In this document: in pieces, positions 222-16,036 of the stretch
How the letters are laid out: each line of letters starts with the position of its first letter
Numbering within the stretch: the first letter of the stretch is position 1
NCBI GenBank assembly: GCA_038327765.1
Contig: JBBQLI010000002.1
Location: forward strand, 933-64,932
Length of the DNA stretch: 64,000 nt
From: Candidatus Limnocylindrales bacterium
GTDB lineage: Bacteria > Chloroflexota > Limnocylindria > Limnocylindrales > CSP1-4
Direction of reading: 5' to 3'
The notes under the pieces: generated by a model
Database searches by the model: none
What the model was told of the DNA's origin: nothing
What the model saw: the letters and a program-made list of their open reading frames with translations, nothing else
Made by a program: the position numbers and the translations under genes

Positions 222-252
222 CGATCGACTTCGTGGCGGGGTCGACCCCGGA

Positions 253-1038
253 TCAGGCGCCAGTGGTGGGCTTTCGCGGGGTCCGCGTCTTGGCCGCGGT
301 GGCGCGCGGAGAGCGAGTCGTGGTGGCCGGCTTCCGGGTCGCAGGCTTGCGGGTCGCAGGCTTGCGGGTCGCAGCTGCCGGCTTCGGCGCAGCGGCCGGC
401 GTCGGCGGGGCCGCCGGGGAGGCGATCGGCTTGGTCGTCGCGGGCTTGCGGGTTGCCGGCGTCCGGCTGGCGCTCGCGGGCTTGCCGGCTGTCTGCTTGT
501 GGGCAGCGGCCTTCGCCTTCGGCTTTGCCACGACCGCGGACGTGACGGCTCCCGTCGACGTGGCGGAGGCCGGCTTCGCCTTCGGCGTGCGGGTCGCGAC
601 CGGCTTCGACTTCGACTTCGACTTGGCGGCCGACGTCGCCGCCGCTGGCGTCTTCACGGGCGAGACGGCCGCGGCTGCCGTGCTCGATGCAGCGCCGATA
701 TCGGCCACAGCACCGGCAGCGGCGTTCGCCGCCGACCCCACGGCCTGGCTCACGATCTGGGCGACCCGACCGGCGATCCTGCCCACCTCGGCGGCGGCTT
801 CGCCGGCCTGCTTCGACCGCTTCGAGATCTCCTTCTTGCCCTTGCCGGCCTTCGCCGAGGCCAGTTGGTGGACGCGCTTCGACTCGGTCTGGCGCGCCGC
901 GGTCAGCTTCGATTCGAGTTTATGGAGCTCTCGTGCGGCCCCCTTGGACAAGGGCATGACCGCGGCCTTCGCGTCATCGACCAGGCCGCTCGCGGCGGTC
1001 TTGACCGCGGCCGCCGTGGACTTGTGCTTCTTCGGCAT
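253..1038 (-). CDS. Lys/Ala/Pro-rich histone H1-like repeat protein (AKP-repeat DNA-binding tail as in AlgP / PhaF / Hlp C-terminus)
   Basis: ORF 253..1203 trimmed to the ATG at 1038 (MPKKHKSTAAAVK...). The N-terminal half looks helical. The C-terminal half is AKSKSKSKP, PKAKPA and ATRKPATRKPATRKPATT repeats. GC3 is high in this frame. The + strand ORF 233..1528 over the same DNA is an Ala/Gly/Val-rich mirror image. Confidence 0.55.
   Translation of the reverse strand: MPKKHKSTAAAVKTAASGLVDDAKAAVMPLSKGAARELHKLESKLTAARQTESKRVHQLASAKAGKGKKEISKRSKQAGEAAAEVGRIAGRVAQIVSQAVGSAANAAAGAVADIGAASSTAAAAVSPVKTPAAATSAAKSKSKSKPVATRTPKAKPASATSTGAVTSAVVAKPKAKAAAHKQTAGKPASASRTPATRKPATTKPIASPAAPPTPAAAPKPAAATRKPATRKPATRKPATTTRSPRATAAKTRTPRKPTTGA
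331..375. repeat. 15-bp tandem DNA repeat (cttSCgggtcgcagg units, about 3 copies) encoding the ATRKP peptide repeat
   Basis: cttccgggtc gcaggcttgcgggtc gcaggcttgcgggtc gcagc is read directly from the sequence. It lies in frame inside the K/A/P-rich CDS. Confidence 0.8.
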
Positions 1039-1156
1039 TCGACGTGTCTCCCGTCGCCAGGCCTCGGAGCCCGGCATCATGGTCCCGGCGGTGGGTCTCG
1101 GTCCGACGTGCCAGGGCTCGCAAACGTACCATCGGAACGTTAACGACGGAGGCACG

Positions 1157-1528
1157 ATGCCATACATCTTGATCGGGGTGGGCGGGTTCGCCGGCGCGAT
1201 CACGCGCTACGTGGTCGATGGGTTCGTGTCGGATCGCACCGGCGGCGGCTTCCCGTGGGGCACCTTCGTGATCAATCTCACGGGTTCCTTCGTGCTGGGG
1301 CTGCTGTTCGCGCTGAGCCAGGAGCGGGCGATCCTGCCCGCAGACATCCGGGCGCCCGTCATGATCGGCTTCATCGGCGCGTACACCACCTTCTCGACAT
1401 GGATGCTCGAGTCGTGGCGGCTCATGGAGGCGGGCGCCTGGTCATCGGCCGTCGCGAACCTCGGCGGTTCGCTCGTGCTCGGCCTGGTGGCCGTCTTCCT
1501 TGGCATGACGCTCGGGAGGGCGATCTGA
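1157..1528 (+). CDS. crcB: Fluoride ion channel CrcB/FluC
   Basis: The C-terminal 123 aa of ORF 233..1528, from ATG 1157 (GGAGG 6-7 nt upstream), read MPYILIGVGGFAGAITRYVV...GTFVINLTGSFVLG...GFIGAYTTFSTW. This is the typical 4-TM CrcB with the GxxTTFSTF/W signature. Confidence 0.9.
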   Translation: MPYILIGVGGFAGAITRYVVDGFVSDRTGGGFPWGTFVINLTGSFVLGLLFALSQERAILPADIRAPVMIGFIGAYTTFSTWMLESWRLMEAGAWSSAVANLGGSLVLGLVAVFLGMTLGRAI

Positions 1529-1878
1529 TGGAGATCACAGGACGCGCACTGATCGCCCGGATCTACATCGGCGAGGCCGATCGACACGACGGCCAGCCGC
1601 TGTACCACATGATCGTGGCGCTGCTCCGTGAGCACGGGCTCGCCGGGGCCACGGTGTTGCGCGGTATCGAGGGATACGGCGCGAACTCCCACCTGCACAC
1701 CACCCGGATCCTGCGCCTGTCCGAAGACCTGCCGATCGTCATCGAGGTCGTCGATCAGGAGGATCGCCTGCGAGCCGTGCTTCCGGAGGTCGATGCGCTG
1801 ATCGGCGACGGGCTGATCACGCTCGAACGCGTGGAGGTGTTCGCCTACCGCGCCAACGGGCCGACCACCCAAGACTAA
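1528..1878 (+). CDS. DUF190 (PII-like fold) protein, the usual crcB partner
   Basis: MEITGRALIARIYIGEADRHDGQPLYHMIVALLREHGLAGATVLRGIEGYG... The start ATG shares one base with the crcB stop (TGATG at 1526-1530). A DUF190/crcB pairing is a well-known synteny. Confidence 0.8.
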   Translation: MEITGRALIARIYIGEADRHDGQPLYHMIVALLREHGLAGATVLRGIEGYGANSHLHTTRILRLSEDLPIVIEVVDQEDRLRAVLPEVDALIGDGLITLERVEVFAYRANGPTTQD

Positions 1879-1934
1879 CGGCACGTTAACGCCGGCCGAA
1901 CACCGGGTTATCCGGGGGCGGCGACGCTCAGGCC

Positions 1935-2627
1935 ATGCCACCTTCCGACGCAGGACACGCTGCGCTGCGTCCCGGCTGGATCGGGCTGGCCGTGGACGGG
2001 CCGCTGCTCGCCCTCGCAGACCGGGCACGGATCGTCGGCGACATCGCGGCGTTCATGGCGCTGGTGGACCAGGCGCGGCCACGGATCGCGGTCGTCAGCG
2101 AGCCCCCGGCAACCGCGGAGCTCCTTGATTGGCTGGCCCACGAACGACGGCGCCGCACGCGGCTGCGGATCGTCCACCTTGCGGCTGAGGACGCGGTCGA
2201 TGCACGGCTCGACGCGCTACGCCGCGGCTTCGATGCAGCCCTTCCCTCCACCATCGAACCGGACGAACTGCACGGTCGCCTATCGCTTCTTGACGAGGGC
2301 GCGCACCCGCCGCCTGGAACGGCCATCGAGATCGCGGCGGGCCTCGAACTCGACCTGATGGCGCACGAGTTGCGGCGCGACGGCGCCCCGGTCCACCTCC
2401 GCCCCAAGGAGTTCCAGCTCCTGGCGATGCTGGCGGGGCATCCCGGTCGCGCCTATTCGCGTCGGCAGCTGCTCGACCGGGTGTGGGGCCAGGAGCATGA
2501 CGGCGATCCTCGCACGGTCGACGTCCACATCCGCTGGCTGCGGTCGAAGATCGAGCGCGATCCCGCGCGGCCGGTCCTGGTCACGCTGCGCGGGATCGGC
2601 TATCGCTTGGACCCGCCGGACCGCTAA
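1935..2627 (+). CDS. OmpR/PhoB-type winged-helix regulator with a degenerate (pseudo-)receiver domain
   Basis: The C-terminus is a classical OmpR wHTH: LRPKEFQLLAMLAGHPGRAYSRRQLLDRVWG...RTVDVHIRWLRSKIE...LVTLRGIGYRL. The N-terminal 120 aa are receiver-like, but the phospho-acceptor position reads RIAVVSEPP (Ser instead of Asp), the acidic pair is reduced to one Asp (LAVDG), and the conserved Lys position reads LPSTI. Confidence 0.75.
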   Translation: MPPSDAGHAALRPGWIGLAVDGPLLALADRARIVGDIAAFMALVDQARPRIAVVSEPPATAELLDWLAHERRRRTRLRIVHLAAEDAVDARLDALRRGFDAALPSTIEPDELHGRLSLLDEGAHPPPGTAIEIAAGLELDLMAHELRRDGAPVHLRPKEFQLLAMLAGHPGRAYSRRQLLDRVWGQEHDGDPRTVDVHIRWLRSKIERDPARPVLVTLRGIGYRLDPPDR

Positions 2628-2806
2628 CCGCGCGCGTCTGGCTCCGGCTCGTTCTGCGGGCGATCGAAGCCCGGCAACTCCTCGAGATCGGCACCGGTGG
2701 GTTCGCCGGTGTTCGGCTCCTTCAACCTGGCGCCACCGATGGGTCCTTCGATGATGTCGCTCGCGTCCGGCCCGTCGGCCCCGGCACTGGTCTCATCCTG
2801 GTTCAT
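2624..2806 (-). CDS. Small acidic protein (60 aa), unknown function
   Basis: ORF 2624..2848 trimmed to the ATG at 2806, which is preceded by GAAGGAGG with a 6-nt spacer. The protein reads MNQDETSAGADGPDASDIIEGPIGGARLKEPNTGEPTGADLEELPGFDRPQNEPEPDARG. I recognise no homology. Confidence 0.4.
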   Translation of the reverse strand: MNQDETSAGADGPDASDIIEGPIGGARLKEPNTGEPTGADLEELPGFDRPQNEPEPDARG

Positions 2807-2875
2807 CGCGACCTCCTTCGACGTCTGGGCCCATCGGGCCGCGACCAAGCGTACCCGCGGCAGGTGCGGACGTGG

Positions 2876-3275
2876 TCACTCGTGGGTCGGTGATCGGTCG
2901 TCCAGGATCCGGTCGGCCTTGCGGTCGATCCGCCCCCTTGTCGGCGGAGCTGAGCTCCCCCTACTCCCTCGGCCGTCTCGGTGATCAGGTACAGCTCGTG
3001 GATGCCCGCGGAGCGAGCGAGATCCTCGGCATGGGCGACCAGGTCGCGGCCGAGGCCTTCGCCGCGACGGTCTGGCGAGACCACCACGGACCGGGGCAGG
3101 GCGGCGCCGTCATGTGCTTCAAGCGCTGCGGCGCCGACGCGCCGACGCGCGGACCGTGACGAGCCACGACGCCGAGCGCGAAGGCCTCGACCGCGCCATC
3201 GAGCGGGAGATCGGCGTCGACGAGCAGCGCCTCGACCGCCGCCAGATCCGATGATCACGCGGTCTCGATCCGCAT
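2876..3275 (-). pseudogene. arsN2: Disrupted ArsN2-type GNAT N-acetyltransferase
   Basis: Three reading frames must be joined. MRIETA-TGA(3257..3255)-SSDLAAVEALLVDADLPLDGAVEAFALGVVARHGPRVGA switches frame at an 8-bp tandem duplication (cgccgacg x2, 3132-3147) into AAALEAHDGAALPRSVVVSPDRRGEGLGRDLVAHAEDLARSAGIHELYLITETAEG (GNAT motif A). There is another frame change near 2960-2970. The ATG overlaps the arsM stop (TGATG). Confidence 0.7.
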
Positions 3276-4084
3276 CAGCAGCAGCCACCCGCACCGCATC
3301 CGCAGCTGGCTTCGGCCATCGGAAGACCCTCCGTCGCCGCGTCGATGAACGGTCGGGCGTCGGCGGGCTTGGTGGCCTTGATGATCGCGCTGACCATCCC
3401 GTCCGCGACGCTGTGCGTGCTCGTGAGCGAGATATCGGTCAGACCGACGGCAGCCAGACCGGCACGGAACTCGGAGAAGGACAGGGCTCCCGCGATGCAG
3501 CCGACGTAGGAGCCGCGCTCGGCCCGCTGCTCCGCCGTCAGGTGATCCTCGGCGACGATGTCGGTGATACCCATGCGACCGCCGGGCCGGAGGACACGCG
3601 CGATCTCGCGGAACACGGCCGGCTTGTCCGCGGCGAGGTTGATGACGCAGTTGCTGATCACGACGTCGACCGAATCCGCGGGCAGTGGGATGTCCTCGAT
3701 CGTGCCTCGCACGAATTCGACATTGGTGGCTCCGGCGTCGGCGACATTGCGCTGCGCGAGGGCGAGCATCTCATCGGTCATGTCCAGGCCGATGGCGCGA
3801 CCCGTGGGGCCGACCCGCCTGGCCGACAGCAGCACATCGATCCCGCCGCCGGACCCAAGGTCGAGCACCCGCTCGCCCTCACGGAGCTCCGCGACCGCGA
3901 TGGGATTGCCGCAACCGAGCGATGCAAGGACGGCAGCTTCCGGGAGTTCGTCGCGCTCGAGCACGGAATAGAGCTCGGCGCCGATGGTGTCGGCGCTGCT
4001 GCTGCAGCACGAACCGTCACGAGCCTGGACCGCGGCGGCCGCATAGCGCGCGCGGACTTCCTGGTGGATGGTCTCGATGGTCAT
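3275..4084 (-). CDS. arsM: Arsenite S-adenosylmethionine methyltransferase
   Basis: ORF 3275..4708 trimmed to the ATG at 4084. The protein reads [19 protein letters not shown]...DGSCCSS...ASLGCGNP...[38 protein letters not shown]...ISNCVINL...YVGCIAGAL...CGCGAGGCC. It shows the conserved Cys pairs and SAM-binding GxGxG of ArsM. Confidence 0.9.
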
Positions 4085-4092
4085 GGCGGTCC

Positions 4093-4263
4093 TCAGCAGC
4101 TGGTGGGCGCCCCGCGCACGACGCGCGAGAGACGCTCGAACAGGGTGGTCGATGCGGCGCGACAAGCGCGAGCGCACAGGGCGATCGTGGCCAGACGGTC
4201 GGCGTGCGTACGTCGCTCGCGCTCCTCCCGGATGACGGCGATGAATTCGGGTGTCGGGTACAT
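4093..4263 (-). CDS. Small Cys-containing protein (56 aa), unknown function; first cistron of the arsM operon
   Basis: ORF 4093..4335 trimmed to the ATG at 4263, with AAGGAG 8 nt upstream. The protein reads MYPTPEFIAVIREERERRTHADRLATIALCARACRAASTTLFERLSRVVRGAPTSC. GC3 is about 80% in this frame. Its stop lies 8 nt before the arsM ATG. Confidence 0.5.
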   Translation of the reverse strand: MYPTPEFIAVIREERERRTHADRLATIALCARACRAASTTLFERLSRVVRGAPTSC

Positions 4264-4287
4264 GGTCTCGGCTCCTTGGTGTGTGCT

Positions 4288-4323
4288 GTATTGATACTTG
4301 ACGATATCGATAGTTGTCAATAC
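4288..4323. promoter_or_regulatory. AT-rich imperfect palindrome in the arsR / arsM-operon divergent promoter; putative ArsR operator
   Basis: The sequence is gtattgatacttgacgatatcgatagttgtcaatac. The outer 7-bp arms GTATTGA/TCAATAC are perfect and the core CGATATCG is palindromic. It is by far the most AT-rich stretch in this region and lies between the two divergent start codons. Confidence 0.6.
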
Positions 4324-4324
4324 C

Positions 4325-4663
4325 ATGCCCGACATGAAGCGCCAGACCGACCCCGATGTCCTCCTCCTCCAGGCAGCCGCGGATCCGAATCGCCTCGCGA
4401 TCCTGCGTCAGCTCGCCGCATCGGATGGCGTGTGCGCCTGCGATTTCACGGATTGCTGCGACGTGGCCCAGCCCACCGTGAGCCACCACCTCAAGGTCCT
4501 GCGCGATGGCGGCTGGGTGCGCAGCGAGCGACGCGCCTCGTTCATCTACTACTTCCTGCGGCCCGAGGCGGTGGAGCGCTTCCAGCAGATCTGCGGCGAG
4601 ATGTCGCCGGCCGCCGGTCTCGTCTCGACCCGGGCGCTGCCGGTCATCCAGCCGCAGGCCTGA
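4325..4663 (+). CDS. arsR: ArsR/SmtB-family metalloregulator
   Basis: MPDMKRQTDPDVLLLQAAADPNRLAILRQLAASDGVCACDFTDCCDVAQPTVSHHLKVLRDGGWV... It has an ArsR HTH with the VCxC As(III)-binding motif. The start is taken at 4325, downstream of the palindrome. ATG 4334 and GTG 4298 are alternatives. Confidence 0.85.
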   Translation: MPDMKRQTDPDVLLLQAAADPNRLAILRQLAASDGVCACDFTDCCDVAQPTVSHHLKVLRDGGWVRSERRASFIYYFLRPEAVERFQQICGEMSPAAGLVSTRALPVIQPQA

Positions 4664-4702
4664 CGGCGGATCGCGCGACCTCGGGCTGAGCACCTCCGGG
4701 CC

Positions 4703-4746
4703 GTTCACGGAGCGTTAACGAACCGCGAACGAGCCGTTCACCCCCG
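4703..4746 (+). promoter_or_regulatory. PHO box: four consecutive 11-nt direct repeat units
   Basis: The units are GTTCACggagc GTTAACgaacc GCGAACgagcc GTTCACccccg, with exact 11-nt phasing, about 120 nt upstream of pstS. They match the actinobacterial PhoP/RegX3 direct-repeat unit (GTTCAC core). Confidence 0.7.
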
Positions 4747-4866
4747 GGAGCGACGGTGGAGTCGTCAAGCGAGGGAGACCGAAGACCCCTGCCGACCGGG
4801 CCATCCCCAGGCCCGCCCGACCGATCGCGTGCCGAACTGTCGCGCGACATCAGGAGGAACAAGAGA

Positions 4867-5781
4867 GTGACGCTCACGACCCCGAAGCGCCTCGGCGCGC
4901 TGGCCTTGGTGGCCGCGATCGCCATCGGCGCATGCTCAGGCTCGACTGCCACGTCAAGTCCATCAGCCGCTGGGCCGAGCGCGGCCCCGAGCACCGCGGG
5001 CGGCAGCCCTGCCGCATGCGTCGCTGGCAAGATCACGGCCCTCGGCTCCACAGCCCTTCAGCCGCTGGTCGACGCGGCCGGCAAGAAGTACACCGCCGCA
5101 TGCCCCGGTGCCACGGTCGACGTGCAGGGCGGCGGTTCCGGCACCGGCCTGACCCAGGTCCTTGGTGGTGGCGCGGATATCGGCAACTCCGACGTCACCG
5201 CGGAGTCGAAGCTCAAGCCGGAGGAAGCCTCCCAGCTGGTCGACCACGTCGTGGCGCGCCAGGGCTGGGTCGTCGTCCTCAACAAGGACATCACCGGCGT
5301 CACGAACCTGACCTCGGCCCAGGAGACCGATATCTGGACCGGCAAGGTCACCAACTGGAAGGACGTCGGCGGGAATGACCTCGCCATCGTCCTGATCCTG
5401 CGCCCCGCCTCCTCGGGCACTCGCTCGGTCTTCAAGAAGATCGTCCTTGGCGGCGCGACCGAGGCGAACGGGACCGCCCTCACCGAAGACTCCAACGGTG
5501 CGGTCACGACCGCCGTCAGCAAGACGTCCGGTTCGATCAGCGTCGTCGGGTTCGCCTACTACCAGCAGAACAAGGGTGACCTCACGGCCATCCAGCTCGA
5601 CGGGGTCGACGCCTCGGTCGCCAACCTGACCAACGGCACCTACAAGCTGCAGGGCTTCGGTCACATGTACTCCAAGGGAGCCGCGACCGGGCTTGGCCAG
5701 GCCTTCCTGACCTACATGCTGAGCGACGACGTCCAGAAGACCCTCATCCCCTCGCTGTTCTACGGCCCCGCCGGGCAGTAA
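4867..5781 (+). CDS. pstS: Phosphate ABC transporter substrate-binding lipoprotein
   Basis: GTG 4867 has CAGGAGGA 9 nt upstream. The lipobox is LVAAIAIGAC. Diagnostic motifs: GSTALQPLV...GGGSGTGL...SSGTRSVF.... Confidence 0.9.
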   Translation: MTLTTPKRLGALALVAAIAIGACSGSTATSSPSAAGPSAAPSTAGGSPAACVAGKITALGSTALQPLVDAAGKKYTAACPGATVDVQGGGSGTGLTQVLGGGADIGNSDVTAESKLKPEEASQLVDHVVARQGWVVVLNKDITGVTNLTSAQETDIWTGKVTNWKDVGGNDLAIVLILRPASSGTRSVFKKIVLGGATEANGTALTEDSNGAVTTAVSKTSGSISVVGFAYYQQNKGDLTAIQLDGVDASVANLTNGTYKLQGFGHMYSKGAATGLGQAFLTYMLSDDVQKTLIPSLFYGPAGQ

Positions 5782-5891
5782 CCTCGCCTTCCGGACGGAC
5801 GACCCCGTGCTCGGACGGGGTCGTCCGTCGACCATTTCTGGCAGGATCGTGGGACGATCCACCAACGACGCCATGACGACTGGAGTTCCGG

Positions 5892-6833
5892 GTGACCAAC
5901 GCCGCCGCCTCCCTCGCCGCCACCCCGATGGCTCGGCCGGCCACGCTCCGTGAGCGGCTTGACCTGCCGAAACGGGTCACGCTGGCCGCGGCTGCCGTGG
6001 TCGTCCTGCTCGTCGGCCTGCTCCTCTCCTTCATCGCCTGGAACGGCATCCAGATCTTCACGGATGCCGGGGTCCCCCTCGGCCAGATCTTCTCGACGAC
6101 GTGGTCGCCCACGGAGGACGTCGGCGAGGTCGCGAACTTCGGCATCCTGCCGTTCATCGCGGGGACGCTCGGCGTCATGGTCGTCGCCGCAGCGATCGCG
6201 ACGCCGCTCTCCGTGGGTCTCGCCCTCTTCATGGCGGAGATCGCCCCGAACTGGGCCCGCTCCATCACGCGACCGGCGATGGAAGTCTTCGTCGGGATCC
6301 CGAGCGTGGTCTATGGCTGGCTTGGCCTGACGATCCTCGTCCCGTTCCTCCAGCAGAACCTCAAGGGACTCGGGTTCACCGTCGGGTTCAGCTGGTTCGC
6401 TGGCTCGCTCGTGCTCGCCCTCATGATCCTCCCCACGATCTCGAGCATCGCCTACGACAGCTTCATCACGGTGCCGGGCGAACTGCGGAACGCCTCGCTG
6501 GCCCTCGGGACGACACGCTGGCAGACGATCCGCCACGTGCTCCTGAAGGCGGCGGGCACCGGGATCGTCACCGCGATCGTCCTCGGCATGATGCGCGCCG
6601 CCGGCGAGGCGCTCGCCGTCCAGATGGTGATCGGCAACCGCCCGGTCATGCCGACGAGCCTCACCCAGCCGCTGACCACGCTGACCAGCCAGATCACGCT
6701 GGACATGGGCAACACCGTGGCCGGGTCGCCGTGGAACGAATCACTCTGGACGATGGGGCTGGTCCTCCTCCTCATGTCCCTCGGGTTCGTGACGATCGTC
6801 CGCATCCTCTCGCGCCGTGGCGGCCGGGCATGA
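5892..6833 (+). CDS. pstC: Phosphate ABC transporter permease PstC
   Basis: Multi-TM protein with the EAA-type loop ...[23 protein letters not shown].... Confidence 0.9.
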   Translation: MTNAAASLAATPMARPATLRERLDLPKRVTLAAAAVVVLLVGLLLSFIAWNGIQIFTDAGVPLGQIFSTTWSPTEDVGEVANFGILPFIAGTLGVMVVAAAIATPLSVGLALFMAEIAPNWARSITRPAMEVFVGIPSVVYGWLGLTILVPFLQQNLKGLGFTVGFSWFAGSLVLALMILPTISSIAYDSFITVPGELRNASLALGTTRWQTIRHVLLKAAGTGIVTAIVLGMMRAAGEALAVQMVIGNRPVMPTSLTQPLTTLTSQITLDMGNTVAGSPWNESLWTMGLVLLLMSLGFVTIVRILSRRGGRA

Positions 6834-7717
6834 GACGAACCCTGCTCGCGGACCGGATCGCGACTGCCGTCCTGTGGGCCATCGCGGTCTTCGTGGTCCT
6901 GATCCTCGTCGCGATCATCGCCCATTTCCTGCTGGCGGCGATCGGGACCATCGGTCCGTCCTTCCTCTTCGGCGACCCGAGCGACTCGAGCGTCGGCGGC
7001 GTGGGGCCGATCCTGTGGAACTCGATCTACATCCTGATCCTGACCCTGCTGATCACCGTCCCGCTCGGACTGCTCGGCGGGATCTACCTCGCGGAGTACG
7101 CGAAGCCGTCCCCACTCACGACGCTCATCCGCTTCTGCCAGGAGCTCATCAGCTCGGTCCCGTCGATCGTGGTCGGGCTGTTCGGGCTGGCGCTGTTCGT
7201 GAATGCCACCCATTGGGGGTTCACCGCGCTCAGTGGCGCGCTTGCGCTGACCGTGTTCAATCTGCCCCTGATGGCGCGCCTGGCCGAACAGGCGATCCGC
7301 GCGGTCCCCGATGACGAGCGGAGCGCGAGTCTCGCCCTCGGCACGACCAAATGGGACACCATCGTCCACGTCGTCCTGCCGATCGCGATCCCGGGCCTCG
7401 TCACGGCGATCATCCTCACCGCGGGACGGATCTTCGGGGAGGCGGCGGCGCTCATCTTCACGGCCGGGCTCTCTACCCCGACCCACTACGACTTCGCGAA
7501 CCTCGACCTGACCGATCCGCGCTCGCCGTGGAGTCCATTCCATGCTGCGACCACCCTCTCGGTCTACATCTGGAAGATCAATTCCGAGGGTCTCGGGAGT
7601 TTCGTGCAACAGATCGCCGACACGACCTCGGCGGTGCTCGTGATCCTTGTCCTGTTCTTCAATCTCAGCGCCAGAGGTCTGGGGCGGGCGCTCCAGCGAC
7701 GTGTCACCGGCGCGTGA
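6830..7717 (+). CDS. pstA: Phosphate ABC transporter permease PstA
   Basis: From ORF 6101..7717, in frame at ATG 6830 ([21 protein letters not shown]...). ATGA overlap with the pstC stop. Diagnostic motif: ...[24 protein letters not shown].... Confidence 0.9.
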
Positions 7718-7752
7718 CGATCGACCGTGACCTACCATCGCCGGAGGACCCG

Positions 7753-8607
7753 ATGACGACCATGACTGCCGACTCTCCATCTCCCACCAGACCGCTCGTC
7801 CCCGTGATCGGGGCCAGCCCGGCCGACGCGGCCGTCGCCACCAAGCTGGCGATGACGGACGTCGACATCTACTACGGGCCGCGTCGCGCCGTGCGTGGCG
7901 TGAACCTGACGATCCGGGCGAACTCGATCACGGCATTCATCGGACCGTCGGGCTGCGGCAAGAGCACGGTCCTGCGCTGCTTCGACCGGATGAACGACCT
8001 CATCCCGAGCGCACGGGTGACCGGCACCGTCACGCTCGACGATCAGGACATCTACGCCAGCGGCGTCCAGGCCGTCGAGGTCCGCCGACGAGTCGGTCTC
8101 GTCTTCCAGCGGCCGAACCCGTTCCCGATGTCCATCTACGAGAACATCGCGTATGGGCCGCGCCGCCATGGCGTGACGAACAAGGCCACCATCGACGAGA
8201 TCGTGGAGCGCTCGCTCCACCGCTCGGCGTTGTGGGACGAGGTCAAGGACGACTACCGCAAGAAGTCCGCGCTGTCGCTCTCGGGTGGCCAACAACAGCG
8301 GATGTGCATCGCCCGAACCCTCGCGACGGACCCTGAGGTCATCCTGATGGATGAGCCGTGTTCCGCCCTGGACCCGATCGCCACGCTCAAGATCGAGGAC
8401 CTGATGGCCGAGCTGCGCCAGAGCTACACCATCGTGATCGTGACCCACAACATGCAGCAGGCGTCGCGGATCAGCAACCAGACGGCGTTCTTCACGCTCG
8501 GTGAGGACCGCGCGGGCTATCTCGAGGAGATGGACGACACCGCGACGATCTTCACCAACCCGAAGCAGCAGCTGACCGAGGACTACGTCTCAGGTCGGTT
8601 CGGATGA
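7753..8607 (+). CDS. pstB: Phosphate ABC transporter ATP-binding protein
   Basis: ATG 7753 follows GGAGGA. It has Walker [10 protein letters not shown], signature LSGGQQQR, Walker B ILMDEP and the C-terminal YVSGRFG typical of PstB. Confidence 0.93.
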
Positions 8608-9377
8608 GCCCCGAGGAGAGCGCCATGACCGACAAGGAGCGAGCCGCGGAGACCGTCCACGAGCAGGTCAGCGAGATCATCGGCCGCGCCGAGGCCGCGC
8701 CGCCCGTATCGGACGTGCGCCCGCCACGTGAGCCGCTCGATCGCGAACAGCGCGAGGTCAAGGACGCGGTCCTGCGGATGGGGATGCTGGTCGAGGAGGC
8801 GATCCGGGCGGCGATGTCTGCCCTTTCCGCCCACGATGCCGACGCGGCCCTCGCGGTCATCGCCGGTGACGGCCGGATCAACGAGGCGCAGCGCCACGCC
8901 TCCACCCAGATCGCGCGGGTGATCGCGATGCAGGGGCCGGTCGCACGCGACCTGCGCTTCCTGCTCTCTCTGGATCACGTGACCTACGAACTGGAACGGA
9001 TCGGTGACCACGCCGCGTCGGTGGCCAAGCAGGTCCGCAAGCTGGCGCCCGAGCCGCCGCTGAAGGACTACATCGACCTGCCCCAGATGGGCGAGCTGGC
9101 CGCGCAACTCGTCCACGGGATCCTGCGCGCCCTCGTGGACATCGACCAGGTCCAGGCACGGGCCGTGGCGGCGCGCGACGATGAGATCGACGCCCTGTAT
9201 CACAAGACCTTCGCCGACGTGGTCGACCTGATGCGTGCGAGCCCCGACAACGTGGAGCGTGGCACGAGGATCCTGTTCGCCGCCCACTACATCGAGCGGA
9301 TCGGCGACCGGGTCACGAATATCGCCGAGGACGTGGTCTTCCTCGCCAGCGGCGAGGTCGAGGACCTCAACCCGTGA
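8604..9377 (+). CDS. phoU: Phosphate signalling complex protein PhoU (with about a 45-aa N-terminal extension)
   Basis: ATGA overlap with the pstB stop. It has two PhoU repeats with ERIGDHA / [12 protein letters not shown] motifs. Confidence 0.9.
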
Positions 9378-9856
9378 GCGACCGGCGACCCATCCGGGTC
9401 GTGTTCGTGTGCACTGGGAACTCGTGCCGGAGCATCATCGGTGAGGCCCTCCTGCGGACCCACGGCGGTCCGGATTTCGAGGTCTTCAGTGCGGGCACGG
9501 ACCCCAAGGGGCTCAACGAGCGCTCGCTGCGGACGCTGGACGAGGCCGGGATCGCTCACCCGTGGGCGCGCTCGAAGTCAGTGACGGAATACCTCGGGCA
9601 ACCGTTCGACTACGTGGTGACCGTGTGCGACCAGGCTCGGCAGGCGTGCCCGGTCTTCCCCGGTTCGCACGAGTCCCTGCACTGGGGCTACGAGGACCCG
9701 GCCGAGGCGACCGGCACCGAGGACGAACAGATGGCCGTCTACCGGCACGTCTTGACCCAGATGGGGATCCGCATCCGCGAGTTCATCCCGATCGCGCTCC
9801 GCGCGCGGGCCGAGGCGGAGGCAGCGACGGCACCCGCAGCGACGGCACCCGCCTGA
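9374..9856 (+). CDS. arsC: Arsenate reductase, thioredoxin-coupled LMW-PTPase type
   Basis: GTGA overlap with the phoU stop. It has the P-loop VCTGNSCRS, a second and third Cys in VTVCDQARQACP, and HWGYEDPA. This mirrors the B. subtilis/S. aureus ArsC Cys10/Cys82/Cys89 layout. Confidence 0.8.
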   Translation: MSDRRPIRVVFVCTGNSCRSIIGEALLRTHGGPDFEVFSAGTDPKGLNERSLRTLDEAGIAHPWARSKSVTEYLGQPFDYVVTVCDQARQACPVFPGSHESLHWGYEDPAEATGTEDEQMAVYRHVLTQMGIRIREFIPIALRARAEAEAATAPAATAPA

Positions 9857-9869
9857 CCCGGTACCCTCG

Positions 9870-10349
9870 GTGGGCATGATCGAACTGCAGTTCCTGCGCC
9901 ATGCCCATGCCGGCGACCCGGGTGCGTTCGACGGACCGGATTCCGCGCGACCGCTATCCGAGAAGGGCGAACGCCAGGCGAACCGCCTCGGCAGGTTCCT
10001 CGCCGGCACCGGATTCCTGCCGGACGCGATCATCACCTCACCCAAGATCCGCGCGCTCCGGACGGCGGAGCTTGTCGCGCTCCACCTGGGACTGCCGTTC
10101 TCGATCGATGACCGCCTGGGTGGCCCGCTGGAACTCGAGTCCCTCGATGCGCTCCTGACCGAGGCCGGCGACCCGGTCCGACCAGTGCTCGTCGGCCACG
10201 ACCCCGATTTCAGCGAACTCGTCTCGTTGCTTGCCGGCATCGACCATCTGCCGATGCGCAAGGGCTCGCTCGCGCGGATCGACCTGGACCGCCCTCTGCG
10301 ACCCCGCAGCGGGACGCTGCGCTGGCTGGTGCCGCCGGACCTCCTCTGA
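9870..10349 (+). CDS. sixA: SixA-type phosphohistidine phosphatase (histidine phosphatase superfamily branch 1)
   Basis: LRHAHAG...LSEKGERQA...ITSPKIRALRTAE...LVGHDPDF, that is the RHG/RHA and H catalytic motifs in a short 159-aa format like SixA. It starts 13 nt after arsC. Confidence 0.7.
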   Translation: MGMIELQFLRHAHAGDPGAFDGPDSARPLSEKGERQANRLGRFLAGTGFLPDAIITSPKIRALRTAELVALHLGLPFSIDDRLGGPLELESLDALLTEAGDPVRPVLVGHDPDFSELVSLLAGIDHLPMRKGSLARIDLDRPLRPRSGTLRWLVPPDLL

Positions 10350-10783
10350 GCGCCGGGCGTCGCCCGAGCGGCACTGGCGCCCGAGCGCCCGGACGTCGCT
10401 GGCCTCTCGCGTCGTGACCGCGAGTCTCCTCGTGGCGGGAGTGCACCGGCCGGACGTCGCTGGCCGCCCGTTGCGTCCCGTCCGCCATTTCGATGCCGAC
10501 CAGATTGCTAGGCGCGTTCGACACCCGGTTGTGAGGTCGCGCGCCCGTCCGCCCCGGTCGCCTGAGCGTGAGCGAGGCTGACTCAAGGAAGGGATCCGCC
10601 GAGATGGCGCCGACACTGTGCCTACCGTTCCGCCAGACGTCGAAATGGCGGATAAGTCGGGCTGGGGCAGCGGTGGCCCGAAGGACCCGAGCGGCGTCAC
10701 CCCGTGAGCTCGCAACCGCCGGGCGCCGGTCCGTGACAGCCGAGTCCGGGCGCGACTGGCCCTGACCGCGCGGCAACGGGCGG

Positions 10784-12094
10784 TCAGTCGGCGACCGCCG
10801 GGAACGGCAGCGCGATCGGATCGGTGGCGAGGCGGCTCCGGCCGTCTGCGTCGAAGCGATCCAGACCCAGGTCCGTGACGTCGATGAGGTCGGTCGCGCC
10901 CCGCGTGACGAGGTCCGCGGCGACGCGGGCTACCCCGGGCCCCCACATCATCCCGTGCCCACCGGCCGACGCGACCGTCACGCCCGCGATCACGCTCCCC
11001 TCGGGTGTCAGCGCCGTCCCGAGGATCGGCAGGTGGTCAGGCGTGTAGTCGATGGTGGCCGCCCAGATCTTGCGCAGCCCCAGGCCGCGGGTCACCGGCA
11101 CGAAGTCGGCGAGGCGCTCGCGCATCCGCTCGTAGAACGCCCAGTCGATGTCGCGGGCTTCGCCGGGTCGCTCGTCCGGGTCGCTCCAGCCGAAGAGCAG
11201 ACCGCCCTCCTCGAGCCGCCAGTAGAGGCCACGGCCGATGTCGAAGACCATCGGCATGCGCGCCACATCAAAGGCGGCATGCGGTTCAAGGACAGCGACC
11301 GTGTGCCGTGCCATTCCCGCCGGGATACGCAGACCCGCGAGCCGTCCCACCGCGCGCAGGCCGGGCCCGCCAGTGAGGAGGACGCGCTCGGTCTCGATGA
11401 TGCCGGCGTCCGTCTCGACGGCGACGACCCGACTCCCTGACCCATCGGTGACGGTCCGGAGGCCGGTGAAGGCTGTGCGCTCGCGCAGCTCCACCCCGCT
11501 CCGCTGCATCGCGAGCGAATACGCGCGGACGTTCCGTGGCGGATCGATGCAGCCGTCGGTCTCCATGTAACTGCCGCCACGATGACCCTCGGTCGACATG
11601 GTGACGGCGGTCGCGGCCGCCTGCGCAGCATCCAGCCAGCGCACATCGAGGCCCTCGTGCCGCTGCATCGCGACGCGTTCCCGGCCAGCCCGTTCGTCGT
11701 CCTCGGTGACGGCGAGGATCAGATAGCCGAGCTCGCGGAAGCCCGAGTCGGTGCCATAGGCGGCCTGCTGGCCGCGATAGAACCCGATGGACCAGGCACC
11801 CAGGGCGACCGTCGCCGGGGTACCCCCTTGCGCGCGCACGATCCCAGCGGCCCGCGACGAGGCGCCCATCCCGGCAAGTCCCCGCTCCACGACGATCACG
11901 CGCCCCATGCCGGCGTCCTTCGCAAAGACCGAGGCCCAGCCGCCGATGGTCCCCGCACCCACCACCACCAGGTCCGCGCGTTCCGTCACGTGCTGGTCTC
12001 CGATACGAAGCCGACCCATCGAGGATAGCCAGCGGGTGGCCTGATCGCGAAGCGCGTCGCGCGTCGCGCGTCGCAGGACCGCGGGCCGCGGCAT
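10784..12094 (-). CDS. FAD-dependent oxidoreductase (DAO family, sarcosine-oxidase-beta / glycine-oxidase-like)
   Basis: DLVVVGAGTIGGWASVFAKDAGMGRVIVVERG...GASSRAAGIVR is a dinucleotide-binding GxGxxG fold. The start may instead be the ATG at 12019. Confidence 0.75.
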   Translation of the reverse strand: MPRPAVLRRATRDALRDQATRWLSSMGRLRIGDQHVTERADLVVVGAGTIGGWASVFAKDAGMGRVIVVERGLAGMGASSRAAGIVRAQGGTPATVALGAWSIGFYRGQQAAYGTDSGFRELGYLILAVTEDDERAGRERVAMQRHEGLDVRWLDAAQAAATAVTMSTEGHRGGSYMETDGCIDPPRNVRAYSLAMQRSGVELRERTAFTGLRTVTDGSGSRVVAVETDAGIIETERVLLTGGPGLRAVGRLAGLRIPAGMARHTVAVLEPHAAFDVARMPMVFDIGRGLYWRLEEGGLLFGWSDPDERPGEARDIDWAFYERMRERLADFVPVTRGLGLRKIWAATIDYTPDHLPILGTALTPEGSVIAGVTVASAGGHGMMWGPGVARVAADLVTRGATDLIDVTDLGLDRFDADGRSRLATDPIALPFPAVAD

Positions 12095-12154
12095 CGCGCC
12101 GATCGCCGGCCTCTGGACAGCCTGCCGGGGTCGCGCGTCACACCCCGATCCCGG

Positions 12155-12826
12155 TCACCCGTCCAGGGCCGCCGCCTCCACGCACACGGCGACCACGCCA
12201 AGACGTGCCAGCCGGTTGAACACCGCACGGCGACGGACCGTCCATGCCGCGACGTCCAGCGACGCGGCACGAGCGGCGGCCATCCCCTCGGCCGCGATCC
12301 CGTTCCATTCCACAGCGATGCCGCGACAACGAAGCTCCACGGCGGCCGCGATCGTGGCCTCGTCCAGGGTGATCGCATTCAGCCAGCGCGGCCACGCAGG
12401 AGCCAGCCCGGCGACGCGCTCCAGCGTGGCCGTCTCGAACGACGACACCACGGCGTTGTTGAGGTCGGCGCCGCGGCCGGAGGCCAGCACCTCCACCACG
12501 GCCCGATCGTGGTCGCCCTTCAGCTCGACATCGAGGAACGGGCGACGGCCCACCGTACTCAGCACGTCGGCAAGTGACGCGACACCGAGCAGTTCGAGGG
12601 CGGCCGCGCTGAGCTCATCCACGCGCTCGGGCCGGCCCTGGACACGAGCCAGCGTGTCGTCGTGGACGACCACCGGGACGTCGTCGCGCGATCGCCGGAC
12701 ATCGAATTCCAGCCCGTCGCAGCCCGGCACCGCAAGGGCAGCCTGGAACGCCGCGATCGTGTTCTCGGGCGCGCGCCGCCAGTCGCCGCGATGGGCGAGT
12801 CGCATGGTGCGCATGACCATGGGCAC
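12155..12826 (-). CDS. ugpQ: Glycerophosphodiester phosphodiesterase
   Basis: MRLAHRGDWRRAPENTIAAFQAALAVPGCDGLEFDVRRSRDDVPVVVHDDTL carries the HRG...EN...E.D...HD motifs of the GDPD family. Several in-frame ATGs lie between 12805 and 12826. Confidence 0.85.
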   Translation of the reverse strand: MPMVMRTMRLAHRGDWRRAPENTIAAFQAALAVPGCDGLEFDVRRSRDDVPVVVHDDTLARVQGRPERVDELSAAALELLGVASLADVLSTVGRRPFLDVELKGDHDRAVVEVLASGRGADLNNAVVSSFETATLERVAGLAPAWPRWLNAITLDEATIAAAVELRCRGIAVEWNGIAAEGMAAARAASLDVAAWTVRRRAVFNRLARLGVVAVCVEAAALDG

Positions 12827-12832
12827 GGTCGG

Positions 12833-13579
12833 TCAGCCGATCTCGAGATGCGCGCTCAGCCCGAGGTGGTCGCTCGGGTAGAGCGTCGGATCCTCGGGGT
12901 CCGGGCGGTCGAACACGAGCCGCGCATCAAGCACGCGAACCGGGCCGCGGACCCAGACGTAGTCGAGACAATCGGGGTCGCCGTCGGTGTCCATCGCCGG
13001 CGCCTGGAGGCCCGATGGCCACGTGACGGCCGGCTCTGCACCGTTGGCGGTCGCGAACGCGGAACGGAATCCGGCCGCGGTCATCCGGGCGTACGTGGGC
13101 TCCTGCGGATCGGCATTGAAGTCACCGACCACGATCGTGGCCGTCGTGCCGGCGTCGTCGCCAAGCCACGCGAGCAGGGCCGCCGCCTGGTCGTCGCGCT
13201 GGGCATCACCGTCCACGACGTGATGCAGATGCGTGACCACGACGCGGACCGTCGAACCGCCCGGGAGCGACACCACGGCACGGTGCGCCGCTCGTGCCAG
13301 GCCCAGGTCAAGGCGTTCGACATCGGTCGCGGCGAGCGGCGCCTTGATCAGGAGGCTGTTGCCGTATTCGGGTCGACCCGCCCAGCCTCGGACGGCGGCG
13401 TAGTGGGCCTCCCCGGCCGCACCGATCAGGCGGTCCTGCTGGAGCACGTAGACCACCTCCTGGAGCCCCAGGAGATCCGGCTGGAGCGCGGCCATGTCGG
13501 CAAGGATCAGCGGCAGGCGTTCCGGCCAGCGGTCGGCCAGGTTCAGGATATTGAGCGTCGCGACGTGCAGGCGGTCCAT
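12833..13579 (-). CDS. Endonuclease/exonuclease/phosphatase (EEP) family hydrolase
   Basis: ORF trimmed to the ATG at 13579 (GGAGGA upstream). The protein reads MDRLHVATLNILN...LLGLQEV...VVVTHLHH...VVGDFNA...PSDHLGLSAHL, the canonical EEP catalytic motifs. Confidence 0.85.
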   Translation of the reverse strand: MDRLHVATLNILNLADRWPERLPLILADMAALQPDLLGLQEVVYVLQQDRLIGAAGEAHYAAVRGWAGRPEYGNSLLIKAPLAATDVERLDLGLARAAHRAVVSLPGGSTVRVVVTHLHHVVDGDAQRDDQAAALLAWLGDDAGTTATIVVGDFNADPQEPTYARMTAAGFRSAFATANGAEPAVTWPSGLQAPAMDTDGDPDCLDYVWVRGPVRVLDARLVFDRPDPEDPTLYPSDHLGLSAHLEIG

Positions 13580-13634
13580 CGATCCTCCGTTCGGGCGTGG
13601 CGGCGGGTTCGAGCGTGGCGGCAAGTTCGGTCGG

Positions 13635-14864
13635 TCAGGACGCCGGCGCTCTCGGGATGGCGAACGAGAACGTCGAACCGGCGCCCTCGTCGGAGTCGAC
13701 CCAGATGCGCCCCCCATGTTGCTCGATGACGTGGCGCGCGATGGCGAGTCCCAGCCCGGTCCCTCCGGCTTCGCCTCGGCTGCGCGCGCGATCCACCTTG
13801 TAGAACCGCTCGAACACGCGCGCCTGCGCGGCCTTGGGGATCCCCAGCCCATGATCCTCGACCGATGTCACGACCTCATCCGCGGCCGGACGGACGCGAA
13901 CGGTCACGGCACCGCCGTCCGGACTGAACTTGACCGCGTTGTGCAGTAGGTTCACCAGGACCTGACCCAGGCGCGCCTCATCGCCGCGAACCAGCGGGAT
14001 CGGTTCAGCGATCTCGACGCCAAGGGTCACGCCCTGGCGATCCGCGAACAGCCGCAGACGCTCCGTGGAGGTCGTCGCGAGCCGACCCATATCCACGTCG
14101 TGGAGGAGCAGCGGCGACGTCCCGGTCTCGATCCGGGAGAGGTCCAGCAGCTCGTTGACCATCTGGACGATATGACCGGTCTCCACCTCGATCTTGCCGA
14201 TCCGGTCGCGCATCTTCGCCGGGATGCTATCGCCGGCTGCTTCGGCTTCGCGGGTGAGCGTCTCGGCGAGCAGGCTCACCGTGGTCAACGGCGTGCGCAG
14301 CTCATGCGAAAGGTTGTCGATGAACTCCGCCCGGATCTGCTGGAGTCGGCGCAGCTCCGAGACATCCTCGAGGACCACCCAGAGTCCTCGCACCGGTGAT
14401 CGCCACGCCCGGACGATCAGGACGGTCCGATCGGTCCCGAGCCGGACTTCCCCGGTGGCGGTGCCAGTGGTCCGGGCCCGCTCGACGATGTCCTCCAGAC
14501 GGCCGGTGAGGAACGCGCTGGTCGATGTCAGCCCACGCAGCGAGCCGGTGGGTCGGTCGAGGAAGACGTGCGCGGCCGTGTTCGCGAGCTCGATGCGCCG
14601 ATCGTCGGCGAGCCACACGATGCCGATGCCGACATGCTCGATCAGGTCGGCGACATCGCGGCGCAGCCCGTCGAGATCGACCGCGACGGCATCGCTCGTC
14701 TCGATCAGGCGGCGGACCCGCCCGCGCGTGTCGTCGATGGTGGTGCGGCCGGCGGTCTGCCCGCGGATGTCGTCAAGCGTTCGCCCGCGCGACAGCGCGA
14801 CCCAGACCACGGCGGCGAGCGCGACCGACTGGGCGATGACGAAGAGGATGAGCGCGCCGTCCAC
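13635..14864 (-). CDS. Sensor histidine kinase (SenX3/PhoR-like: TM, PAS-like, HisKA, HATPase)
   Basis: H-box SHELRTPLTTV, N-box LLHNAVKFSP, G1 DHGLGI, G2 GGTGLGLAI. The start is taken at GTG 14864 (VDGALILFVIAQSVALAAVVWV = TM helix), because the upstream part of ORF 13635..15161 overlaps the preceding gene and is Arg/Ser-rich. Confidence 0.85.
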   Translation of the reverse strand: MDGALILFVIAQSVALAAVVWVALSRGRTLDDIRGQTAGRTTIDDTRGRVRRLIETSDAVAVDLDGLRRDVADLIEHVGIGIVWLADDRRIELANTAAHVFLDRPTGSLRGLTSTSAFLTGRLEDIVERARTTGTATGEVRLGTDRTVLIVRAWRSPVRGLWVVLEDVSELRRLQQIRAEFIDNLSHELRTPLTTVSLLAETLTREAEAAGDSIPAKMRDRIGKIEVETGHIVQMVNELLDLSRIETGTSPLLLHDVDMGRLATTSTERLRLFADRQGVTLGVEIAEPIPLVRGDEARLGQVLVNLLHNAVKFSPDGGAVTVRVRPAADEVVTSVEDHGLGIPKAAQARVFERFYKVDRARSRGEAGGTGLGLAIARHVIEQHGGRIWVDSDEGAGSTFSFAIPRAPAS

Positions 14865-14910
14865 GAGGCGAGCATGGCACAGCAGACCGCGCCGCGGCCG
14901 GGTCGGCCGA

Positions 14911-15975
14911 TCAGCGGTCGCGCGGCGGCCGACGCACGCGCGGCGGGACCGGGTCTGGCGGGAGCAGCCACGGACGCCAGGCGACCGTGAGGTCGTCGAA
15001 CGTGCTTCCCGGGAATGCGTGGCGCAGGACCACGAGGTGCGCCAGCCGGGCGACGGCGCGGCGTGCACGCGCGGTCGCAGCCGCGTCGACGACGGCCGGC
15101 ACCTGCTCGGCGGCGTCCCGCGCCGCGAGGATCGTGGAGACGCGCAGGCCATCGTCATCATCGGCCGACAATCCGCCCGGCCAGGGTGCGCTGGTCCCGC
15201 TCAGGGTCGCCGCGGTGCTCGCGGTGGCCCGGACCCCGGCCGCGTCGAGTCCGGCGATCCGACGCAGCAACCCTTCCATCGCCGCCGTGTTCGGTCCGTA
15301 TCGTGGCTGGCCCACGGCGGCGTCCCAGCCACGCGTCAGCCGTTCCTGCGTCCGACCCCGGAACGGCTCGCTCAGGAGCTCATCGAGGAACGGCCCCAGG
15401 ACCAGTTCGGTGGCGTACCCGTCGATCGCGTCGCGCGCCGCAGGGGCGTCGGCTGCCGCCGGCCGGTTCGCCGTCACGGCCGACTCCATGGCGTCCAGCG
15501 CGGCCAGCCGGTCCGGTGGGAGGAATCGCCGGATGGTGGCACCGAACGCGATCGGCGGTGCTTCGGCGAGGGCCAGCCGGTCGAGGTCCGTGGGCGTCAG
15601 CGTCCGCAGCCGCTCGATGAACCGGTCCGCTGCGCTCGCCTGGTCAGCCGCGCGGGAATGGGTCCGAGCCATCGGCGGCGCGGGCGGCGCTTGCCCGGGA
15701 CCGCGGGCATGCCACGCGCCATCCCGAACGCTGCGCGACCCCGGCACGCGTAACCCACGATCGCGGTCATAGCGCTCGCGCAGGTCCGCATCGGTGAGCC
15801 AGTCGTGGGCGACGTTGATGCGTTTCGCAAGCTCCAGCCCGTCGTCGCCCGCCACGTCGGGATGGTGCCGTCTGAGCAGCGCCCGCCAGGCCACCTCGAT
15901 CGTCTCGACGCTGGCGTCCGTGGGCACACCAAGCCGGGCGTACAGGTCGTCGTCGGGCAGTGTCGGGCGTGGCAT
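14911..15975 (-). CDS. J-domain protein (non-DnaJ architecture)
   Basis: The N-terminus reads DLYARLGVPTDASVETIEVAWRALLRRHHPDVAG...AKRINVAHDWL with the HPD motif. The remaining 280 aa are Ala-rich, with no Zn-finger or DnaJ C-terminal domain. Confidence 0.75.
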   Translation of the reverse strand: MPRPTLPDDDLYARLGVPTDASVETIEVAWRALLRRHHPDVAGDDGLELAKRINVAHDWLTDADLRERYDRDRGLRVPGSRSVRDGAWHARGPGQAPPAPPMARTHSRAADQASAADRFIERLRTLTPTDLDRLALAEAPPIAFGATIRRFLPPDRLAALDAMESAVTANRPAAADAPAARDAIDGYATELVLGPFLDELLSEPFRGRTQERLTRGWDAAVGQPRYGPNTAAMEGLLRRIAGLDAAGVRATASTAATLSGTSAPWPGGLSADDDDGLRVSTILAARDAAEQVPAVVDAAATARARRAVARLAHLVVLRHAFPGSTFDDLTVAWRPWLLPPDPVPPRVRRPPRDR

Positions 15976-16036
15976 GACGGGTCCATCGTAGGGTCCGGCC
16001 GTCCGGCCCGACCGCTATGCTCGCGGGACGCGTCGG

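Follow-up and report, generated by a model that had tools for sequence, protein, structure and literature searches.

What are an arsenate reductase and a SixA-like histidine phosphatase doing at the end of an operon for phosphate uptake? Arsenate poisons cells by way of their phosphate transporters, and most of the known answers to it are separate ars operons, which are switched on only after arsenite has appeared. The question is raised by a 64,000-nucleotide (64-kb) stretch of DNA, here called the window, from a Candidatus Limnocylindrales bacterium of the phylum Chloroflexota (GenBank assembly GCA_038327765.1, contig JBBQLI010000002.1, positions 933 to 64,932 of the forward strand), in which pstSCAB-phoU is followed by arsC and sixA. 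The answer that we regard as likely is that pstS, a hairpin behind it, pstCAB, phoU, arsC and sixA form one phosphate-starvation operon of this bacterium, working by the mechanism proposed below. The genes of the window, which has a G+C content of approximately 68–70 %, were taken from an open reading frame (ORF) listing and translation, and families were assigned with NCBIfam and Pfam profiles. The members of the putative operon and its two non-coding elements are as follows (positions are those of the window).

4703–4741, plus strand: Pho-box-like array GTTCAC-N5-GTTAAC-N5-GCGAAC-N5-GTTCAC, four hexamers with an exact 11-nt spacing
4867–5781, plus strand: pstS, phosphate-binding lipoprotein (TIGR02136, 226.4 bits, cut-off 206.6)
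5794–5829, plus strand: 15-bp G+C-rich hairpin within the 110-nt pstS–pstC gap
5892–6833, plus strand: pstC, permease (TIGR02138, 263.4 bits, cut-off 196.45)
6830–7717, plus strand: pstA, permease (TIGR00974, 252.5 bits, cut-off 193.45)
7753–8607, plus strand: pstB, ATPase (TIGR00972, 383.3 bits, cut-off 343.2)
8604–9377, plus strand: phoU (TIGR02135, 185.3 bits, cut-off 130.25)
9374–9856, plus strand: arsC, thioredoxin-type, with a low-molecular-weight (LMW) phosphatase fold, 160 amino acids (Pfam LMWPc)
9876 (or 9870)–10349, plus strand: SixA-like histidine phosphatase, 157 or 159 amino acids (Pfam His_Phos_1)

All five components of pstSCAB-phoU are present in order, each above its curated NCBIfam cut-off, and the GTG start codon of pstS at 4867 is preceded by AGGAGG. 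Exact overlaps of stop and start codons join pstC to pstA (ATGA, 6830–6833), pstB to phoU (ATGA, 8604–8607) and phoU to arsC (GTGA, 9374–9377). These genes, coordinates and overlaps, together with the ArsC motifs discussed below, had been proposed in an earlier reading of the nucleotide sequence (the original prediction), and all of them were borne out by the ORFs, their translation and the profiles. Its statement that no hairpin or gap separates the genes holds for the pstC/pstA, pstB/phoU, phoU/arsC and arsC/sixA junctions, but not for pstS and pstC, which are 110 nt apart with the hairpin between them, nor for pstA and pstB, which are spaced by 35 nt. Similarly, sixA was said to start 13 nt after arsC, which is true for the GTG at 9870, counted from the arsC stop at 9856; this start is possible, but nearly all homologues favour the equivalent of the ATG at 9876 (MIEL...), which gives a gap of 19 nt.

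The layout is not due to chance, as the same gene order and overlaps recur across dozens of species-level genomes. The proteins of the window were mapped onto 80 species-representative loci around ArsC homologues (referred to where needed by L numbers), of which 56, with an ArsC identity of at least 50 % and enough flank on both sides, were assessable. The closest homologues are found in metagenome-assembled genomes labelled Candidatus Limnocylindrales or Chloroflexia, and many of the relatives are long-read assemblies with frameshifts (L001 and L015 carry a frameshifted phoU). The synteny survey for phoU-arsC-sixA that the original prediction had called for was positive in 28 of the 56 assessable Limnocylindrales loci, and phoU-arsC without sixA occurred in none of them; six loci have arsC-sixA without an adjacent phoU match, two of these being assembly frameshifts, and in 22 neither phoU nor sixA stands beside arsC. 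The 4-nt overlap between the phoU stop and the arsC start recurs in at least 24 species and an arsC/sixA overlap of 1 or 4 nt in at least 15, while 21 of the 28 phoU-arsC-sixA loci contain arsM within 6 kb and 19 a glycerophosphodiesterase gene. The operon variant is real, conserved and class-wide.

Several departures from the basic layout were observed among the relatives. A tandem pair of arsC-like genes lies between phoU and sixA in L048 (5389–6253) and L053 (7001–7877), and the order arsC-sixA-arsC occurs in L059. In the closest relative with context (L081, ArsC 89 % identical), a 399-amino-acid CitMHS-family permease (3161–4360) is encoded by an eighth cistron that runs into the stop codon of sixA. 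No trace of such a permease was found in the 434-nt non-coding gap (10350–10783) that separates sixA from a convergent FAD (flavin adenine dinucleotide)-oxidoreductase gene, nor in L001–L080, and a remnant of a lost gene after sixA was therefore dismissed for the window. The same gap has no Rfam match, its first 136 nt fold no better than shuffled sequences, and an Rfam scan of positions 1–20000 at E values up to 0.1 likewise returned no match. In-frame fusion ORFs were also encountered, namely PhoU-ArsC in L009 (5375–6586), and, in the protein collection, ArsC-SixA (P0258 and P0273) and PhoU-ArsC-SixA (P0354). They were set aside as evidence of a physical link, since they number three or four among hundreds and one-base errors at 4-nt overlaps would yield them; such assembly errors at overlapping stop and start codons are their most likely origin, genuine fusions being less likely.

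The array upstream of pstS makes Pho-type control of the operon likely as far as can be judged from sequence. The sites of PhoB and PhoP are direct repeats one helical turn apart, and we read the operon as Pho-controlled because the array at 4703–4741 shows this architecture and has conserved counterparts ahead of pstS in relatives. A simple scan for phased hexamers gives it 18/20, and it is the sole site of at least 16/20 in the window, with 30 shuffles giving none. At least 20 relatives have like arrays 110–155 nt ahead of pstS; they keep the 11-nt period and consist of GTTAAC, cTTAAC, a degenerate third unit and then GTTGAC or GTTCAC. In the ppk1/CYTH-CHAD loci described below, arsC is not directly preceded by any array that reaches the threshold used. 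The genes lying ahead of the array in the window are as follows.

1935–2627, plus strand: OmpR/PhoB-type regulator without the phospho-acceptor Asp (Pfam: Trans_reg_C only)
3275–4084, minus strand: arsM, arsenite methyltransferase (NF008823, 284.7 bits, cut-off 263)
4325–4663, plus strand: arsR, ArsR/SmtB metalloregulator (NF033788, 80 bits, cut-off 55; Pfam HTH_5)

The first of these is conserved, with full-length orthologues of 46–73 % identity (most of them 55–73 %), all of which lack the Asp. In eight relatives (L001, L002, L004, L009, L012, L013, L023 and L069), the orthologous gene ends just before the pstS array, and in the window it is parted from the array by a block of approximately 2.07 kb that comprises an acetyltransferase-like remnant, arsM and arsR. 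A weaker phased array, ACTAAC-N5-GTTAAC-N5-CCGAAC-N5-GTTATC (1852–1912), precedes the regulator gene, as is also the case in L012, L013 and L023, and these two are the only arrays scoring at least 14/20 in the 64 kb. The pseudo-receiver regulator may be the reader of the box. A canonical PhoB-like regulator is set apart at 19304–20002.

A second element of presumable regulatory importance is the hairpin after pstS. The pstS–pstC gap folds with a z-score of -2.5, its best 50-nt stretch reaching -35.4 kcal/mol, and a hairpin of -32 to -36 kcal/mol is found at the same place in all seven assessable relatives, its position being kept while its sequence differs. The hairpin at 5794–5829 probably acts as a partial terminator or stabilises the pstS message, and the probable effect is an excess of PstS over the products of the rest of the operon.

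The identity of the 160-amino-acid protein encoded behind phoU determines how the operon is to be understood. As predicted from its sequence and modelled fold, it bears every hallmark of a thioredoxin-coupled arsenate reductase, including the motifs CTGNSCRS, VTVCDQARQAC and HWGYEDP. The P-loop CX5R(S/T) corresponds to C13-TGNSC-R19-S20, and 88 of 90 homologues have C13, R19 and S20, the remaining two being truncated. The redox pair C85/C92 (C-X6-C, the equivalents of Cys82 and Cys89) is kept in 90/90 and 89/90 sequences, respectively, and the catalytic D108 within the HWG(F/Y)xDP motif in 90/90 sequences from all contexts; among close homologues, C13, C85, C92 and D108 are invariant. The best solved relative in a sequence search (E value 9e-37) is ArsC2 of Deinococcus indicus (DiArsC2; 8p5n/8p6m), which is encoded in an ars operon and has been crystallised with arsenate (PMC10483234). 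All three cysteines align with those of DiArsC2, in which C85 and C92 correspond to Cys87 and Cys94, and the predicted structure (predicted local distance difference test, pLDDT, of 87.7) matches it with a target-normalised TM-score of 0.91 and 41 % identity in the structural alignment. Ranks 1–19 of the fold search are all arsenate reductases, ranks 1–16 being DiArsC2 and the thioredoxin-type enzymes of B. subtilis and pI258 with target-normalised TM-scores of 0.84–0.93, and the first tyrosine phosphatase follows at rank 20. The thioredoxin-coupled layout recognised in the original prediction is upheld by the conservation of Cys13, Cys85, Cys92 and Asp108 and by the best sequence and fold matches, which are to thioredoxin-type enzymes.

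The same LMW-phosphatase fold and P-loop would also suit a tyrosine or arginine protein phosphatase, which together with SixA would make up a signalling-phosphatase pair attached to PhoU. Such a function would be in keeping with a profile score under the ArsC equivalog cut-off and with the existence of MerR- or cNMP-binding-domain fusions in the family. Nevertheless, the residues peculiar to the redox relay (Cys85/Cys92 and Asp108) are kept in nearly all of approximately 90 sequences, both the sequence and the fold searches list arsenate reductases before any tyrosine or arginine phosphatase, and the closest paralogues reside in ars operons with Acr3, so that a protein phosphatase appears very unlikely. 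The paralogues were resolved in a tree of 85 sequences, in which a clade (support 100/99) of copies located behind arsR or fused to a MerR domain, and adjoining Acr3, is separate from the pst- and sixA-linked copies. Because this supported sister clade sits in ars operons with ArsR or MerR and Acr3, the sequences indicate that the pst-linked arsC is a close paralogue of the ordinary ars-operon reductase that was recruited to the phosphate operon. Hundreds of MerR-HTH-ArsC fusions of approximately 280 amino acids adjoin Acr3 in bins labelled Limnocylindrales and Dormibacteraeota (L025, 6596–8538; L042; P0261–P0359), and it may be through the reductase domain that such a regulator senses arsenic; ArsC-cNMP-binding fusions of approximately 300 amino acids occur as well.

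With an arsenate reductase at this position, the following mechanism can be proposed. Under phosphate scarcity, an OmpR/PhoB-family regulator would bind the array at 4703–4741 and turn the operon on, the hairpin after pstS would hold PstS above the downstream gene products, and the stop/start overlaps would couple the translation of arsC and sixA to that of phoU. Arsenate entering via Pst would be reduced at once by ArsC with the help of thioredoxin and of a relay from Cys13 via Cys85 to Cys92, and the arsenite so formed would be the signal for ArsR, upon which the neighbouring arsM would be released and the arsenic methylated; the SixA-like histidine phosphatase would be made together with ArsC. 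Neither Acr3 nor a second arsC is found in the 64-kb window, in which ArsB was not searched for, and for this reason ArsM is presumably the fate of the arsenite and ArsR presumably its sensor. The original prediction had placed arsR-arsM immediately upstream of the operon, and there they are indeed found as a divergent pair, with arsM on the minus strand and arsR on the plus strand. Its claim that arsenate detoxification is wired into phosphate uptake gains support from the phoU/arsC overlap in at least 24 species, the Pho-box-like array before pstS, the proximity of arsM in 21 of 28 loci and the ArsC hallmarks. A reductase encoded inside the transporter operon of an abundant, uncultured class of soil bacteria would make protection scale with uptake; it would also supply ArsR with the arsenite signal for the neighbouring arsM, which has a bearing on arsenic methylation and volatilisation in phosphate-poor soils.

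Several observations weigh against reading the locus as a single phosphate-starvation operon of this function. No RNA run holding the locus was found, the matches being confined to sediment and soil DNA metagenome runs, so that co-transcription and induction by phosphate limitation are to be regarded as putative. For the regulator that reads the array at 4703–4741, the proteins mentioned above are candidates only. Both terminal enzymes score below their family thresholds, ArsC reaching 111.9 bits against the TIGR02691 (arsC_pI258_fam) cut-off of 174.3 in a full-length but divergent match, and the SixA-like protein 51.5 bits against the TIGR00249 cut-off of 74.5 in a match spanning positions 3–154 of 154. 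Finally, an internal promoter inside phoU is possible; scans for consensus promoters and terminators inside the operon yielded nothing useful, promoter scans being uninformative at 68 % G+C.

Expression would be governed by arsenic instead of phosphate if such a promoter were the main one for arsC and sixA, or if transcription from arsR also ran on into the operon. In the window, arsR is co-directional with pstS, lies 203 nt upstream of it and is not separated from it by any terminator-like hairpin, and ArsR is known to control pstS1/phoU in Agrobacterium (PMC3834237). However, in most relatives the arsR/arsM pair is located just downstream of sixA, whereas here it is upstream of pstS and inverted, with arsR pointing at pstS. 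As arsR stands downstream of sixA or on the other strand in nearly all relatives, read-through from it is not a general rule, and the conserved overlaps argue for coupling to phoU. An arsenic-driven operon is consequently considered unlikely, and a single operon under Pho-type control is retained as the preferred reading.

The arsenate part of the operon is well explained and in principle unsurprising, and the SixA part is the more interesting element. The catalytic residues of the SixA-like protein are invariant and its confident model superposes on the SixA fold, on the basis of which it is predicted to be an active SixA-type histidine phosphatase. The N-terminal motif reads L-R10-H11-A-H-A-G, that is RHA and not RHG, with R10 and H11 invariant in 21 sequences; R61 and H110 are invariant as well, and their counterparts in E. 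coli SixA lie in the SPFLRA and SHLP segments. The model (pLDDT 93.5) is that of a minimal single-domain fold of approximately 160 amino acids, with TM-scores of 0.83 to Nostoc Alr0221 (3f2i) and 0.79–0.81 to E. coli SixA (1ujb); Agrobacterium SixA also superposes, and RosC, a small-molecule phosphatase, and the histidine-phosphatase domain of mycobacterial MutT1 are matched more weakly.

Gene neighbourhoods give an indication of the partners of this enzyme. In four species, arsC-sixA occurs without phoU next to the pair: it follows a CYTH-CHAD gene in L054, L055 and L057, with ppk1 ahead of CYTH-CHAD in L054, and in L046 it is preceded by CYTH-CHAD, at a distance of approximately 3 kb, and then by ppx, and is followed by pstSCAB. 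A ppx fragment is also present at the left edge of the window. Thus the association of sixA with arsC is closer than that with phoU, and since the pair stands behind or near ppk1, CYTH-CHAD and ppx in these four species, it is part of a wider phosphate/polyphosphate neighbourhood and not of PhoU specifically.

In the original prediction, co-expression with PhoU was taken to suggest that SixA removes the phosphate from the Pho sensor kinase (13635–14864) and thereby resets the phosphate signal. That sixA follows phoU-arsC in 28 loci is consistent with such a role, as is the kinase itself, which is PhoR/PnpS-like and shares its neighbourhood with phosphate-scavenging genes. The HPt domain of ArcB is a substrate of SixA. 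The published substrates are NPr and Ndk (PMC6282199, PMC7948535, PMC12934123), and the known ones do not include the phospho-accepting histidine of a sensor kinase of the ordinary, non-hybrid kind (PMC6282199, PMC12934123), which is why we rate the idea low. Moreover, the tightest partner of sixA is arsC, the pair is found away from phoU in the four species described above, and the regulator gene conserved beside pstS lacks the phospho-acceptor Asp. The proposed resetting of the kinase is therefore not supported, though not refuted, and must be considered improbable. The kinase gene belongs to a row on the minus strand (12155–14864) that also encodes an endonuclease/exonuclease/phosphatase-family protein and a glycerophosphodiesterase, and the same genes follow the operon in relatives (DAO, GDPD and Exo_endo_phos in L081).

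A target to which we give a higher, if still tentative, rating is the phosphohistidine of PPK1 or of nucleoside diphosphate kinase, or else a small phosphate ester, by acting on which the SixA-like enzyme would tune the spending of phosphate in starvation, its link with ArsC being one of shared regulation only. This possibility is suggested by the location of arsC-sixA behind ppk1 and CYTH-CHAD in some species, by ppx at the edge of the window and by the fold matches to MutT1 and RosC. Furthermore, E. coli SixA dephosphorylates Ndk and aids survival in starvation (PMC12934123), and a marine alphaproteobacterial phosphate island contains ppk-SixA-ppx with pst and a Wzb-type LMW phosphatase (PMC10734472). 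It leaves unexplained, however, the translational coupling of sixA to arsC and the constant presence of sixA after phoU-arsC. It is also conceivable, although we consider it doubtful, that arsC-sixA is an obligate two-enzyme phosphate-economy module of the Limnocylindria, which moves between pst-phoU and ppk1-CYTH/CHAD tails and in which the SixA-type phosphatase works with ArsC. In that case, SixA could, for instance, free a phosphate-handling enzyme (PPK1, Ndk or the Pho kinase) of a phosphohistidine or of an adduct derived from arsenate when arsenate competes with phosphate, and enzymes of the SixA type would, if this is true, have a physiological function that is new for them. The SixA-type companion of arsC is one of the few cases in which gene context gives a testable lead for this poorly understood family.

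The original prediction regarded the arrangement as not previously described, and this is correct in part. The principle of coupling between phosphate and arsenate is already in the literature: arsenate enters via phosphate transporters, and its reduction is stated for cyanobacteria to be induced under phosphate limitation, as a part of the response to it (bioRxiv 10.1101/2024.10.09.617355), and arsenic islands are known to carry pst genes (PMC3834237). On the other hand, no description of such an operon came up in a full-text literature search that combined SixA with arsenate reductase, and in the three papers mentioning Limnocylindria as well as arsenic, title and abstract contain neither word. 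The new part is the operon variant in an uncultured class, phosphate–arsenate coupling being known in principle.

Comparison with known systems places the locus more precisely. With the pstSCAB-phoU operons of the E. coli and B. subtilis type it shares the five genes and their order, the 11-nt-phased direct repeats before pstS and the hairpin after pstS; it differs in the addition of arsC and sixA by overlapping codons and in the adjoining conserved regulator without a phospho-acceptor Asp. The arsenic islands of Agrobacterium, Herminiimonas and Halomonas (Li et al. 2013, PMC3834237) likewise combine ars genes with pst-phoU, and the rationale is the same, as arsenate mimics phosphate. In those islands, however, pst is a second copy forming a separate unit beside aio/ars, whereas here arsC is inside the pst operon and its neighbour is arsM, not an efflux pump. 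The reductase has the fold, the CX5R P-loop, the Cys82/Cys89-type pair and the catalytic Asp of the S. aureus pI258 enzyme, B. subtilis ArsC and DiArsC2, but, unlike the known thioredoxin-coupled enzymes, it is encoded in a phosphate-uptake operon instead of an ars operon and ends in a helical, Ala-rich C-terminal tail of approximately 20 residues. The SixA-like protein has the same minimal fold of approximately 160 amino acids and the same Arg-His...Arg...His core as E. coli SixA (1ujb) and Nostoc Alr0221 (3f2i), and differs from them in an identity of only about 25 %, in RHA for RHG and in a score under the family cut-off; its phoU-arsC or ppk1-CYTH/CHAD gene context has not been described before for SixA. 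The nearest parallel to the latter is offered by the phosphate islands of marine HIMB59 (PMC10734472), which similarly unite pst-phoU, ppk, ppx, a SixA-type and an LMW phosphatase in one island, although in an unrelated lineage, with genes that do not form one operon and with an LMW phosphatase annotated as Wzb and not as ArsC.

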